A DNA stretch of 64,000 nt from an uncultured Candidatus Saccharibacteria bacterium (GTDB lineage: Bacteria > Patescibacteriota > Saccharimonadia > Saccharimonadales > AWTP1-31): the NCBI GenBank assembly GCA_964634445.1, contig CAZWJA010000001.1, positions 10,343-74,342 of the forward strand. Reading direction: 5' to 3'. The notes below the pieces were generated by a model, which saw only the letters and a list, made by a program, of their open reading frames with translations, was not told the DNA's origin and did no database searches. Below, one piece after another: positions 21,194-29,277 of this stretch. The position numbers and the translations under genes were made by a program. The first letter of the stretch is position 1. Each line of letters opens with the position of its first letter.

Positions 21194-21622
21194 CTATACT
21201 TTTCTTTTTCGTCTGCGCAAGCTGGCTACTTGCAGTCTGACAGCTTGGCGGTCGATTAGCTGCTGGGCATGCTGCAGGGAAACAGTATCCTTGGCTTCTT
21301 TAACTAAGTTCTTAGCTTGTTCTAACGCTTTTTGGGCTTCGGCTTCGTTAATTTCGTCTTCGTTATCAGCTTCGTCTACAAGCACTCGTACTTTGTTGTC
21401 GGCTATTTCTATTACACCACCGTTGGATGCAAAATGCTCAAGTCGGCTGTCCGGATCACCAGCTTTTTTTCTAACAGTTATTACTCCAGGCACAGCTAGA
21501 CTAACTAACGGCATATGATTCGGAAATACAGCGATATATCCATCTTTGGTCGGAAGTACGACTTCAAAAACTTCTTGACTGTATTTTGTGCCATCTAGAG
21601 TAACTAATTCAAATTGAATCAT
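21194..21622 (-). CDS. atpC: F1Fo ATP synthase epsilon subunit
   Basis: Last gene of the atp operon. N-terminal beta-sandwich sequence typical of epsilon (LVTLDG..VPTKDGYIAV). Confidence 0.8.
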   Translation of the reverse strand: MIQFELVTLDGTKYSQEVFEVVLPTKDGYIAVFPNHMPLVSLAVPGVITVRKKAGDPDSRLEHFASNGGVIEIADNKVRVLVDEADNEDEINEAEAQKALEQAKNLVKEAKDTVSLQHAQQLIDRQAVRLQVASLRRRKRKV

Positions 21623-22077
21623 AAATAAGCCTCATTTTTTTGAGCAGCTAGTTGCTCGTTATGATCCAGCATACTGCAAACAATTGTCGATTCAGCCATT
21701 AGGCAGACGAGTTTCATAAGATTGCTTGTGTCGTAGGGAATAAAGCTGTCGACTAGTTCTTGGACAATTATGTCTTCACGAATACTATTAGCGGGCGAAT
21801 TATCTCTCCAACGAGCCTCGAAATTATCCATTCGTAGTCGGTCGAATTGGTAATCGTAGTAGTAGCCGTTTCTAACTTCCAATTTAGCTGCATCACCGAC
21901 ATTTTTTGCCTGAGGGTACCGCTTGCTAGTCCAAGCATAAAAACCATCGCGCAAAATCTGGTGCTGCCGGCTCCATCCCGGTTTCAAGCTGTAAGGCTGG
22001 TTGTTACCGTTAGCCATTTGTAATTTCCCCATATTCTGCTGGCGAATCAGAGAATTGAATTGCCGCATCTGCCACAC
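21619..22077 (-). CDS. Hypothetical protein embedded between atpD and atpC (downstream part of a possible frameshifted gene)
   Basis: GTG-initiated ORF that overlaps the upstream 83-aa ORF by 68 nt in another frame. Its stop overlaps the atpC start. Confidence 0.35.
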   Translation of the reverse strand: MWQMRQFNSLIRQQNMGKLQMANGNNQPYSLKPGWSRQHQILRDGFYAWTSKRYPQAKNVGDAAKLEVRNGYYYDYQFDRLRMDNFEARWRDNSPANSIREDIIVQELVDSFIPYDTSNLMKLVCLMAESTIVCSMLDHNEQLAAQKNEAYL

Positions 22078-22261
22078 TTCTAACTTGACCGTATAGTCTT
22101 TCTATTGCTGATTGGTCGAAATCGCCTGTTCCAGTCCGCACATTATGCATGAAGGCTTCTAATTCAGCCGGCGTGACATCATGCCGTTCTACTACCGGCT
22201 TGGGCTCGTAACCGCGGTCAATGTAACCGCCGGTGGTTCCAGTGCAAGTTCCAGCTTCCAT
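22010..22261 (-). CDS. Hypothetical protein embedded between atpD and atpC (upstream part)
   Basis: ATG overlaps the atpD stop (TAATGG). Gly/Thr-rich N-terminus. Ends inside the next ORF. Confidence 0.35.
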   Translation of the reverse strand: MEAGTCTGTTGGYIDRGYEPKPVVERHDVTPAELEAFMHNVRTGTGDFDQSAIERLYGQVRSVADAAIQFSDSPAEYGEITNG

Positions 22262-23640
22262 TATTTAACCTCGCTAATCTTACCCTTCATATAGAAGGCG
22301 CTTTCCGGCTTGTCGTCGTGCTTGCCATCAATAATTTCTTTGACGCCTTGGACAGTGTCTTTTAGTGATACGTATGTACCGGGGATATTACTAAATACCT
22401 CGGCAACGCTAAAAGGCTGGGTTAGGAATCTTTGAATTCGTCGGGCTCTAGCTACAGTCAGCTTGTCTTCGTCGCTTAGTTCTTCCATACCAAGAATTGC
22501 AATAATATCCTGTAGATCTTTATACCGCTGAAGAATCCTTTGGACTTCACGGGCTACTTGGTAATGCTCTTCGCCGACAATTTCCGGGTCCAGAATAGTT
22601 GAACTTGAGTCTAATGGGTCGACAGCCGGGTAAAGACCTTGTTCTGTTAGTGCTCGGTTTAGCGTAATTGTCGAGTCTAAGTGAGCGAAAGTTGTGGCTG
22701 GGGCAGGGTCGGTAAGGTCATCGGCCGGAACGTAGACTGCTTGGACTGATGTAATAGATCCGGTTTTAGTTGAAGTAATTCTTTCCTGCAAGCCGCCCAT
22801 TTCCTGAGCCAGATTTGGCTGGTAACCGACAGCAGAAGGCAAACGTCCGAGTAGCGCGGATACTTCGGCTCCAGCTTGTGTGAAACGGAAGATGTTGTCA
22901 ACGAAAAGAAGCACGTCTTTACCTTCGTCACGGAATCCTTCGGCAATGGTAAGTCCTGACAGTCCAACTCGAAGTCGGGCACCTGGTGGTTCATTCATTT
23001 GTCCGAAAACTAGGGAAGTTTTGTCTAATACTCCGGATTCTTCCATTTCGTAATAAAGGTCGTTTCCTTCACGGGTACGTTCACCAACACCGGCGAATAC
23101 ACTTGTTCCACCATGTTCTTTGGCAATGTTGTTAATTAGCTCAGTAATTAATACGGTTTTACCAACACCAGCACCACCGAATAGTCCGACTTTACCGCCT
23201 TTTGTTACTGGGCAAATAAGATCGATTACTTTAATTCCGGTTTCCAGTACCTCAGTTGTACCAGATTGTTCGTCTAGAGTTGGTGGAGTTCGATGAATAG
23301 GGGATCGCTTTTTGAAATCTCCTTTTTTACCGTCAATTGGTTCACCAAGAACATTGAACATCCGACCCATGGTTTCTTTACCTATCGGCACGCTGATCGG
23401 TGCACCGGTATCGATAACGCTGCTGCCGCGTTTTAAGCCGTCAGTAGTTCCTAGGGCGATTGCTCGGACACTGTTTTCGCTTAAATGCTGGGCTACTTCC
23501 AGAACTAGCTTCTTGCCGTTTACGTCTACCTCAATCGCGTTATAGATTGCCGGAAGATGTCCTTCTTCAAATTCAACGTCAGCGACCACGCCGACTACCT
23601 GGCTGATACTGCCTTTTTTAGTTTTTTCTGCTGTTGCCAT
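22261..23640 (-). CDS. atpD: F1Fo ATP synthase beta subunit
   Basis: Walker [12 protein letters not shown]. Conserved beta-subunit DELSEED-region ([10 protein letters not shown]). Confidence 0.95.
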
Positions 23641-24071
23641 TATTTCTCCTTACTTTCTGCACCTGCTGGGGCGGTTCTATCAAATACTAAGTTTAAAATT
23701 CCTTGAGTAGTTTCTGGCTTTGTACCAGAAGTTTCTCGGTAAGCCATTGCACTTTTTATCATTGATCTTACATCTTCACTGTCTTCTGGTATTGTCATAT
23801 GACTACCTTTTAATACTGTATCGACGATGCTACTAGCTTCTTGGGCATAATCTCTATCTTCATCCAGAGCATCTCCAGTCAAGCCAACACTGCATGCGAC
23901 AAAAGAAACATACCAGACCAGTGTATCGACAGCGGTCGCCATATCTTCTTCTCCCAAACCTTTACCTGTAAGTTCCAATGCAAATCCACCTAGTTGTCGC
24001 TGGACGTCTGCTGCTACCTGGCTAGATGCAAGTTCTATTAAATTCGGGTTTGGTTCTCTTAATCCTGCCAT
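23640..24071 (-). CDS. Hypothetical protein between atpG and atpD; weak resemblance to all-alpha NTP pyrophosphohydrolases (MazG/HisE-like)
   Basis: Overlapping start/stop coupling with atpG and atpD. The segment [31 protein letters not shown] resembles the EExxE...DxLxYxxxLA..GIDL pattern of MazG-like enzymes. The assignment is tentative. Confidence 0.3.
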
Positions 24072-27993: not shown

Positions 27994-28061
27994 TTATTTC
28001 CTTTATTTTGTTTTAGAACGGAGCAGGGCGGCGAACCGCCCAAGTTTAATCTGTTGCTCGT

Positions 28062-28310
28062 CTATTTAACAATGATACCGGCTGCTAATGTCAGCAGGGC
28101 GGTAACTTCGATCATTGCCGCGATAATAATAACCTGGCTCGCAGCCTTACCAGCTTCCGGGTTACGTCCTAAAGCTTTCATATAAGCTTGTCCGACCATA
28201 CCCAGTCCGATAGCAGCACCGACCATGCCGATACCGACCATGAATGACTTGCTGTTGAAGGGACCTGATCCGGTTGCTTCAGCAGCTACTTTTGTTAGTA
28301 ATGGTGCCAT
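28062..28310 (-). CDS. atpE: F1Fo ATP synthase c subunit
   Basis: 82-aa two-helix hairpin with Gly-rich helix 1 (GIGMVGAAIGLGMVG). Confidence 0.85.
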   Translation of the reverse strand: MAPLLTKVAAEATGSGPFNSKSFMVGIGMVGAAIGLGMVGQAYMKALGRNPEAGKAASQVIIIAAMIEVTALLTLAAGIIVK

Positions 28311-28380
28311 TTATTTAAACTCCTTATTTTGTACCGCAAGCACCCTGGCAAGCCAGAGAAAATTCTCACGGATATTAATA

Positions 28381-29277
28381 TTAATGGCTAACATCTCCCT
28401 CGAGCTTCGCGACCACAGGGTCGGTTTCGTGGGCAGGATGTTCGTCGTCATGGCCGTGGCTAATTGCCAGACCTAGGTATGTAGCGGCAAGTACGGTAAA
28501 GACATACGCCTGAATGCCCGCTACAAGCATTTCAAATATGGCGATTGGTAGAATTGTAAACGATCTGAAGTCTTTGCCGATGTAGGCGAATATTCCGATT
28601 AAAATCTCACCCAGGGCGGTATTAAGAAACAGCCTAAGGCTGAGGCTTAAGACGCGGGTGAACTCTCCGAAAACTTCCAATATGCCGATAAAAAGGTTGA
28701 TCGGGTTGAGCGGCTTGTCGGTAAAGTAGTGTTTAAGGTGACCGATAAAACCGGATTCCTTAATCGACAAGTACTGGACTGTAATAATAGCTATTAGCGC
28801 CATTGCGATCGTGCCGTTAAGATCAGCTGTAAACGGACGTAGCAGAGGAACATTTCCTTCATGTGTAGTTGCGAAAACTCCAGGACCTACAATTGGCAAT
28901 AACCCCATTAGATTGGAGAAAATAATAAATAAGAAGAACGTCCCAAAGATTGGTGCATATTGGACCGCTTTAGCGCGTGAGCCTAATGGGCCTTCGACCA
29001 GCCCGATAATAAACTCGGCAATAATCTCAATCACTTGGTTGATTCCTCTTGCGGCTTTGATATGGATTTTAGTTTTAGCAAATATCAGCCACATTACCAG
29101 CAGTGCTGCACAGATCGCTCCGTAAATAAAAGAATTACTGATCGGCAAACCATGCCAAGTAAAAATATTCTCAGGACTAATAGAAATATGTAGGTCTTCG
29201 GCTGCAAAACGGCTAAACGGATTAGCTAAAGAAATAAGGGAATTTAGCATAGACCTCCAGTGGGTTGACACTCCCAA
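28381..29277 (-). CDS. atpB: F1Fo ATP synthase a subunit
   Basis: Polytopic membrane protein with the conserved stator Arg region LSLSLRLFLN. Confidence 0.85.
   Translation of the reverse strand: MGVSTHWRSMLNSLISLANPFSRFAAEDLHISISPENIFTWHGLPISNSFIYGAICAALLVMWLIFAKTKIHIKAARGINQVIEIIAEFIIGLVEGPLGSRAKAVQYAPIFGTFFLFIIFSNLMGLLPIVGPGVFATTHEGNVPLLRPFTADLNGTIAMALIAIITVQYLSIKESGFIGHLKHYFTDKPLNPINLFIGILEVFGEFTRVLSLSLRLFLNTALGEILIGIFAYIGKDFRSFTILPIAIFEMLVAGIQAYVFTVLAATYLGLAISHGHDDEHPAHETDPVVAKLEGDVSH

Follow-up and report, generated by a model that had tools for sequence, protein, structure and literature searches.

What are four additional open reading frames (ORFs) doing between the F1 genes of an ATP synthase operon? 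The question is raised by a 64,000-nucleotide (nt) stretch of DNA, hereafter the window, from an uncultured Candidatus Saccharibacteria bacterium (GenBank assembly GCA_964634445.1, contig CAZWJA010000001.1, positions 10,343 to 74,342). Its minus strand carries a complete F1Fo operon (29277-21194) in the order atpB-atpE-atpF-atpH-atpA-ORF174-atpG-ORF143-atpD-ORF83-ORF132-atpC, where the numbers give the lengths of the additional products in amino acids (aa). One insert lies at the atpA/atpG (A/G) junction, one at atpG/atpD (G/D), and two at atpD/atpC (D/C), all on the strand of the operon. An earlier note on this DNA had counted three extra ORFs and proposed them as candidate accessory or regulatory subunits. 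The three junctions stand, but the inserted ORFs are four, and we arrived at a different reading: the inserts are probably taxonomically restricted genes that hitch-hike at permissive junctions of the operon, with a link to the ATP synthase that is positional rather than functional.

The genome belongs to the Saccharibacteria (TM7, Patescibacteria). In a species-representative genome collection, the close relatives of its AtpG were all from Saccharibacteria metagenome-assembled genomes (MAGs), the best at 79% identity.

The inserts are protein-coding genes

The four inserts are genuine protein-coding genes. Frame-specific codon log-odds, trained on the long ORFs of the window, gave them 0.23 to 0.41 bits/codon in frame 0 (ORF174, 0.41; ORF143, 0.37; ORF83, 0.30; ORF132, 0.23), compared to 0.29 to 0.44 for the atp genes, and the other two frames were negative. 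Furthermore, in 59 gaps of 200 to 700 nt among relatives, the longest stop-free stretch in the sense direction covered a median of 99% of the gap, compared to 57% in antisense and 52% after shuffling (Wilcoxon p = 4e-11). This is in good agreement with the earlier note, which had held that the inserts are not random. Their products are hydrophilic and acidic (isoelectric point [pI], 4.35 to 5.64). The GC content at third codon positions (GC3) is low in ORF174 (0.22) and ORF143 (0.26) compared to the atp genes (0.33 to 0.49) and the other orphans (0.33 to 0.45), which may reflect a weaker selection on codons or another origin. ORF132 had been listed as 152 aa long; the ORF is real, but this length comes from a mechanical GTG-to-stop call, and starting from the internal ATG at 22017, the product would have 132 aa. 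Its start is uncertain, neither version being present in the public protein collection.

Mis-assembly, a chimeric MAG, or degraded duplicates of atp genes can hardly be the explanation. The inserts showed no similarity to atp proteins and had no paralogue within the window, ORF174 was recovered exactly, with its flanks, in two independent Logan assemblies, and the architecture recurs in dozens of independent MAGs and in one isolate genome. The inserts are thus not fragments of their neighbors, which the earlier note had named as a sign of mis-assembly.

Three F1 junctions are recurrent slots

We mapped the window proteins by tblastn onto 80 related Saccharibacteria atp loci and scored a junction as occupied when the gap was at least 150 nt. 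All eight core subunits mapped as expected. Such gaps were present at A/G in 26/80 loci (33%), at G/D in 39/78 (50%), and at D/C in 14/72 (19%), compared to 0/232 at the Fo/stator junctions B/E, E/F, F/H, and H/A. To our knowledge, canonical bacterial atp operons generally have no genes at the three F1 junctions. The earlier note had said as much, which holds in general but not for the Saccharibacteria.

The occupants are strikingly diverse. An all-against-all phmmer comparison left 123 of 134 gap ORFs as singletons, and none of 89 slot ORFs had a Pfam hit. Weak similarity was not more frequent between ORFs of the same slot than between those of different slots (Smith-Waterman z-scores, p = 0.88). 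Based on this and on the singletons, we rejected a single diverged family per slot. More than one gene can stand in a slot: the G/D slot of locus L009 holds ORFs of 210 and 141 aa, the D/C slot of the window holds ORF83 and ORF132, and the A/G slot of locus L090 is likewise occupied in series, indicating that slots can accumulate genes one after the other. Another locus (L055:5901-8000) has a truncated atpA match (5901-6701, 62% identity) and, behind it, a 1,122-nt A/G gap with several ORFs; atpA may be disrupted or rearranged there.

The inserts differ between the closest relatives

Contigs at 81 to 86% AtpG identity were retrieved with AtpG as bait from a collection of 5.8 billion proteins. 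In the closest one (L083, 86%), atpA runs straight into atpG, atpG and atpD are separated by 44 nt, and the contig ends before D/C. L084 (82%) carries a 159-aa ORF at A/G and a 141-aa ORF at G/D, both unrelated to those of the window, and has no D/C insert. At G/D, L088 (82%) harbors an unrelated 140-aa ORF and L086 (81%) a 173-aa ORF that is homologous to a 165-aa ORF of locus L001 (E = 2e-30) and not to ORF143; neither has an insert at A/G or D/C. The D/C pair of the window was found in no relative. Among the 80 loci, ORF174, ORF83, and ORF132 had no tblastn match at all (0/80 each), and ORF143 had one weak match (1/80), at 26% identity, to an ORF of L009 (phmmer E = 1e-8) that likewise lies at G/D. 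Even L084 and L088, whose AtpG proteins are 92% identical, have G/D ORFs without similarity to each other, and their nucleotide similarity stops at the atpG stop codon and restarts at the atpD ribosome-binding site.

These data bear directly on the proposal that the inserts are lineage-specific accessory or regulatory F1 subunits, such as hydrolysis inhibitors or assembly factors comparable to IF1, zeta, AtpTheta, or the C-terminal domain of epsilon. Such proteins would be made beside nascent alpha, gamma, and beta by virtue of their operon position and would evolve fast, as inhibitors of this kind do. The proposal fits the presence of inserts at F1 junctions only, never at Fo/stator ones, their tight coupling to the genes for alpha, gamma, beta, and epsilon, and the ORF174 product, which is predicted to be folded and helical and is under selection. 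Known F1 inhibitors (mitochondrial IF1, alphaproteobacterial zeta, and cyanobacterial AtpTheta) are also small, largely helical, lineage restricted, and mutually non-homologous. However, they are conserved within their own lineages and usually encoded outside the core atp operon, whereas the inserts are not conserved even in a genus-level clade. The closest relative lacks A/G and G/D inserts, and those at 81 to 82% AtpG identity have unrelated ORFs or none; a common family and same-slot similarity are both lacking. Furthermore, the epsilon subunit of the window retains its own C-terminal helical domain. At E <= 1, neither Pfam nor NCBIfam linked the inserts to known ATP synthase subunit or accessory families, and Pfam gave no match to the IF1 and zeta families either, a check that is partial for AtpTheta, which may lack a Pfam entry. 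Comparison with related operons thus did not uphold the earlier note on this point, and we consider F1 subunits an unlikely explanation.

Start signals at the occupied junctions

Start/stop overlaps were found at 6 of the 7 junctions that touch an insert, largely in line with the coupling that the earlier note had described. The start of ORF174 lies on the atpA stop (TAATG), and its end overlaps atpG by 8 nt (ATGGCTAG). TAATG also forms the ORF143/atpD and atpD/ORF83 junctions. ORF83 and ORF132 overlap at ATGGCTAA if ORF132 starts at ATG 22017, with the same geometry as at ORF174/atpG, and ORF132 overlaps atpC at ATGA. Shine-Dalgarno (SD)-like motifs (GGAG, GAGG, or AAGGAG) lie 6 to 10 nt upstream of the overlapped starts, which is the stop/start arrangement of translational coupling. 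The exception is the passage from atpG to ORF143. The earlier note had ORF143 coupled on both sides, but it overlaps its neighbor at the 3' end only, and on the other side a 49-nt spacer with an SD of its own (AAGGGAG) separates it from atpG. From the arrangement of the genes, we infer that the inserts are co-transcribed with the operon and translationally coupled to its core genes.

Comparison with insert-free relatives suggests how the atp genes would keep their start signals. At D/C, the sequence AGCGAGGTTAAATAATG is followed by ATC in L088, where it starts atpC, and by GAA in the window, where it starts ORF83. By this match, ORF83 initiates on exactly the ancestral SD and ATG of atpC, and the 3' end of ORF132 provides a new GAGG SD for atpC. 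At A/G, atpG starts 1 nt after the atpA stop in L083; in the window, it is ORF174 that starts on the atpA stop, and its last codons carry a GGAG SD for atpG. The situation at G/D is different. Occupied and empty slots share a conserved atpD initiation region, TAAGGAGAAATAATGGCA, and G/D occupants read through TAAGGAGAAATAATGGCA and stop on its TAA, which accounts for their recurrent "...KEK"-type C termini. A capture of the ancestral atpD start by ORF143 was considered and rejected, as the match between its 49-nt spacer and the 44-nt atpG-atpD spacer of L083 was not significant (z = 0.7, p = 0.28).

Internal promoters or terminators were not found in the operon beyond what shuffling predicts, nor were repeats or att-like sites flanking the inserts found beyond chance; the repeat family D4 turned out to be merely the common SD-TAATGG start context. 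These results also concern the idea that the inserts are mobile or exchanged cassettes, i.e., selfish elements or cargo swapped by transformation, with the conserved atpA and atpD genes serving as homology arms. All three hot junctions indeed lie next to atpA or atpD, which are the most conserved genes. Moreover, natural competence has been shown for Saccharibacteria (PMC10633639), the ORF143 family has a member in the distant L009 and none in closer relatives, and the GC3 of ORF174 and ORF143 is below that of neighboring genes. Nevertheless, H/A also borders atpA and is never occupied, and the 5' region of atpD beside ORF143 gave no recombination signal (74% between the window and L009, compared to 73 to 79% for others). 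In addition to the missing repeats and att-like sites, we found no nuclease or recombinase domains, phage or defense homologues, or further copies within the window, and the families are tiny rather than widespread. Cassettes therefore seem very unlikely to us.

Searches for homologues

None of the inserts matched Pfam, NCBIfam, PHROGs, PADLOC, or the PDB sequence set, either as single sequences or as profiles. A tblastn search against 50,697 phage genomes returned nothing for the inserts, the lone match, to a tape measure protein (E 0.02), being noise. When 1.84 billion representatives were scanned exhaustively with the ORF174 profile (HMMER), only three relatives came up (P0002, P0124, and P0125). 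P0124 sits between the C terminus of atpA and atpG, i.e., in the A/G slot; on the same contig, a further unrelated 105-aa ORF lies between P0124 and atpG (L090:1046-1363). P0002 follows an upstream gene fragment, and the next gene starts 8 nt ahead of its stop, a geometry like that of ORF174, which would place P0002 in the A/G slot as well. Among about 15 billion proteins, ORF143 and ORF83 each form a singleton cluster, and a search of 5.8 billion clusters with ORF143 retrieved ORF143 only. Two metagenome scans, one with the ORF174 alignment and one with AtpH, found no relatives. The inserts are thus orphans in the sense of having no homologue beyond a narrow clade; for ORF132, this is based on the 80 loci rather than on an exhaustive search.

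The earlier note had also seen a MazG/HisE-like segment in ORF143, for which we obtained no profile support. A Pfam scan at E <= 1 returned only noise (PSMbeta and DUF4843), a profile built from ORF143 and its L009 homologue found no MazG-like chain in the PDB, and the metal-binding acids of MazG/HisE (EExxE/ExxD) are not conserved, the acidic segment of ORF143 being aligned to ADPQILAAEI in the homologue.

Evolutionary rates and predicted structure

The inserts evolve at nonsynonymous rates (dN) about 3 to 30 times those of the core subunits. Between L001 and L086, AtpA and AtpD have a dN of 0.03 and a synonymous rate (dS) of about 1.0 (dN/dS, ~0.03), compared to 0.575 and 1.8 for their common G/D ORF (dN/dS, ~0.3 to 0.6). 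Between L013 and L015, dN is 0.046 for AtpA, 0.016 for AtpD, and 0.49 for the insert, and between L057 and L060, the insert dN reaches 0.97 at a dS of about 0.9 (dN/dS, ~1). The ORF174 family, with a dN of 0.53 and a saturated dS between the window and L090 (dN of the adjacent AtpA C terminus, 0.157), has 22 invariant positions at 33 to 57% identity. Constraint thus varies: it is moderate in the families of ORF174 and ORF143 and hardly acts on the sequence at the other extreme, and the open frame is kept throughout.

The AlphaFold2 model of ORF174, built from only four sequences, has eight helices (pLDDT, 83.5; pTM, 0.79). Foldseek found no neighbor for it in the PDB (best E = 1.3, TM score ~0.2) or in BFVD. 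The single-sequence model of ORF143 is helical and too poor for a judgment on its fold (pLDDT, 41.5).

The near-free sequence of some occupants raises the possibility that they are translated spacers without function at the protein level, whose frames stay open only so that ribosomes reach the next atp gene and whose sequence is near neutral. The L057/L060 pair and the dissimilar G/D ORFs of L084 and L088 are what one would expect of such spacers, as are the 123 singletons. For ORF83 and ORF132, which have no homologue at all, this reading is plausible. For ORF174 and ORF143, it is contradicted by the data. The ORF174 family has invariant blocks, a dN well below dS, and a confidently predicted fold, the ORF143 family is recognizable across about 65% AtpG identity, and the dN/dS of the L001/L086 G/D ORF is not 1. 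Moreover, the uniform acidity of the slot ORFs (~90% below pI 6) argues for constraint at the protein level, and a spacer could simply be deleted, as has evidently happened in L083. As an account of the inserts as a whole, we regard translated spacers as unlikely.

Acidic orphans in other slots

The operon is not the only place in the window where such genes occur. Upstream of it, a 216-aa orphan of the same acidic class lies between genes for a glutaredoxin-like (Grx) and a CobA/CobO-like protein, and two further ones lie between atpC and a MIP-family channel gene. Within the same 80 loci, the Grx-to-CobA/CobO slot is occupied in 30/36 cases (same threshold) and the atpC-to-MIP slot in 18/27. 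Occupants of the former are at best weakly related (198 aa in L084 versus 214 aa in L086, E 5e-6). The latter is empty in L086 and holds a single 346-aa ORF in L084.

F1-slot ORFs have a median pI of 4.64 to 4.67, and about 90% of them are below pI 6, compared to 36% of conserved genes. Grx-to-CobA occupants are equally acidic (median pI, 4.77; 97% below pI 6), which rules out acidity as an F1-specific signature. The like acidity inside and outside the atp operon suggests that the inserts are part of a larger class of slot proteins, spread genome-wide, that are small, acidic, and fast evolving. That the same acidity and turnover are seen in non-atp slots speaks against F1 subunits as well.

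A variant of the subunit proposal would give up sequence conservation altogether. In that case, the three F1 junctions would be dedicated places for hyper-diverse small acidic proteins acting on F1, e.g., host- or niche-specific brakes on ATP hydrolysis where there is no respiratory chain; only position, size, charge, and coupling would be conserved, and the restriction to F1 junctions would be functional. We consider this quite unlikely. If it were true, the candidate phyla radiation would hold a new class of F1 regulators, and one of extraordinary diversity.

An occupied slot in a cultivated relative

Candidatus Southlakia epibionticum ML1 encodes a hypothetical protein, SEML1_0356 (483 nt/160 aa), between gamma and beta, with overlaps of 4 and 8 nt (Wang et al. 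2023, PMC10633639, Tables S1 and S2). This row of a supplementary table is the only trace that we found in the literature, which holds, as far as we searched it, no description of atp operon inserts in Saccharibacteria. The authors flagged SEML1_0356 as a core, Patescibacteria-enriched family and assigned it, based on structure, an N-deoxyribosyltransferase-like (DUF4406) fold (PMC10633639). By position, SEML1_0356 and ORF143 occupy the same G/D slot; ORF143 differs in having one homologue and no assignable fold.

In transposon sequencing (Tn-seq), SEML1_0356 was called non-essential at all passages, and the ATP synthase was not essential in co-culture (PMC10633639). Normalized reads from T0 to T2 fell from 1470 to 748 and 275 for SEML1_0356, compared to 1393, 918, and 302 for gamma and 2824, 1682, and 607 for beta, and those of the downstream folC rose (PMC10633639). 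The depletion in parallel with the atp genes could be taken as support for an F1 subunit, but it is equally well explained by polarity: an effect on atpD and atpC would produce just this pattern. Furthermore, SEML1_0356 is the one slot occupant to which a fold has been assigned, and this is not an ATP synthase fold. Together with its non-essentiality, this indicates that the G/D slot can carry recognizable cargo unrelated to the ATP synthase. As S. epibionticum is cultivated and transformable, the pattern is experimentally tractable.

How the inserts may be maintained

Taken together, we favor hitch-hiking and infer that the inserts have no function in the ATP synthase. According to this model, they would lack promoters of their own and be expressed through the operon transcript and termination-reinitiation coupling. 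An insert would either use for itself the start signals of the atp gene that follows, providing a replacement SD within its own last codons (ORF174 for atpG, ORF83/ORF132 for atpC) or read through the conserved downstream ribosome-binding site and stop on it (ORF143 for atpD). In both cases, expression of the core subunits would be kept. A/G, G/D, and D/C would then be recurrent slots whose occupants vary in number, length, and sequence, are under weak to moderate purifying selection, and can be lost cleanly.

Several points weigh against this model. Simple hitch-hiking does not explain why inserts are confined to three F1 junctions (79/230 versus 0/232), a pattern that would agree with a connection to the assembly or regulation of F1. 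As judged from its model and its substitution pattern, the ORF174 product is well folded and under purifying selection and so presumably does something. Dissimilar occupants at 90 to 92% AtpG identity fit replacement and rapid drift of positional orthologues alike; at a dN about 13 times that of AtpG (L001/L086), drift alone could be enough to erase similarity at about 90% AtpG identity. Word-index searches may miss distant relatives, and only ORF174 was searched for exhaustively. Finally, dS is saturated in most pairs, so that dN/dS values are rough and the relative dN and two or three unsaturated pairs are what is informative.

Known systems share some of these features. Orphan genes in variable slots are likewise narrow-clade, small, fast evolving, and patchy, with a conserved backbone on both sides, but here they lie inside a coupled multi-subunit operon, with start/stop overlaps, at exactly three junctions across the phylum. 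Extra genes of rotary ATPase operons, such as atpI/atpZ upstream of atpB, cyanobacterial atp1, and atpQ/atpR of N-type ATPase operons (PMC5376962), are non-core and co-transcribed, as the inserts would be. Unlike the inserts, they belong to conserved families, with fixed places that precede the Fo part or lie within it, and mostly encode membrane proteins; the insert products are soluble, acidic, unrelated to those families and to each other, and encoded between F1 genes. Phage morons and free-standing homing endonuclease genes are also small and patchy and lie between conserved co-oriented genes, but the inserts have no nuclease domain, promoter, terminator, multi-copy spread, or phage homology. 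While orphan genes in slots and operon hitch-hikers are known, what is new here is that three hypervariable orphan slots are present phylum-wide in the F1 half of the operon and that ribosome-binding sites are precisely rewired at them.

If hitch-hiking is correct, unrelated new genes stream in between the most conserved subunit genes of a core bioenergetic operon and are tolerated there, in a genome that is ultra-small and reduced, and ribosome-binding sites are rewired precisely enough that the ATP synthase is still made. The slots would then represent a natural system for studying the gain of expression by operon hitch-hiking, the speed of turnover, and what distinguishes permissive from forbidden junctions. 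For annotation, hypothetical genes in Patescibacteria atp operons should not be called subunits on position alone.

The operon and its surroundings

The features discussed are collected in Table 1. Gamma, delta, and epsilon were identified by Pfam directly and the remaining subunits by 64 to 91% identity to the Pfam-bearing genes of L084.

Table 1. Genes of the atp operon, its inserts, and neighboring slot genes (positions in the window)
Feature	Position	Strand	Description and basis
atpB	28381..29277	-	Fo subunit a, first gene of the operon; 70-77% identity to the L084/L010 gene; product with PF00119 ATP-synt_A
atpE	28062..28310	-	Fo subunit c; homologues in 55 loci; L084 counterpart with PF00137
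atpF	27451..27993	-	Subunit b; L084 counterpart with PF00430
atpH	27052..27444	-	Delta/OSCP, short 130-aa form; PF00213, E 4e-20, profile positions 54-170 of 172
atpA	25504..27036	-	F1 alpha; 83-92% identity to relatives; L084 counterpart with PF00006/PF00306
ORF174	24980..25504	-	A/G-slot orphan, acidic (pI 4.5), predicted all-alpha; junctions, coding score, homologues, AlphaFold2 model
atpG	24121..24987	-	F1 gamma; PF00231, E 9e-88
Spacer	24072..24120	-	Non-coding, 49 nt from atpG stop to ORF143 start, with SD AAGGGAG; read from the sequence
ORF143	23640..24071	-	G/D-slot orphan, acidic (pI 4.35); junctions, coding score, L009 homologue
atpD	22261..23640	-	F1 beta; 86-93% identity to relatives; L084 counterpart with PF02874/PF00006
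ORF83	22010..22261	-	First D/C-slot orphan, pI 4.4; junctions, coding score 0.30
ORF132	21619..22017	-	Second D/C-slot orphan; ATG start at 22017 preferred; mechanical ORF of 152 aa from GTG 22077
atpC	21194..21622	-	F1 epsilon, beta-sandwich plus C-terminal helical domain; PF02823, E 7e-19; PF00401, E 7e-5
216-aa orphan	29772..30422	+	Grx-to-CobA/CobO-like slot (29364-31018) upstream of the operon; same acidic class
Two orphans	20109..21100	-	atpC-to-MIP slot; 125 aa at 20723-21100 (pI 5.6) and 179 aa at 20109-20648 (pI 5.1); same acidic class
MIP-family channel gene	19270-20022		Beyond the atpC slot

About 50 N-terminal residues of the canonical delta subunit are apparently missing from AtpH, which is likewise 128 to 131 aa long in L084 and L086. 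The atpG genes of L009 (L009:2567-3538) and L010 (L010:8001-8933) are longer than that of the window (972 and 933 nt versus 864 nt), and their products are about 65% identical to its AtpG, compared to 90% for AtpD. This suggests that the gamma subunits of the L009/L010 clade have evolved at an accelerated rate or carry insertions. Elsewhere in the window, the plus strand carries a 2,060-aa ORF (6542-12724), the largest of the window.

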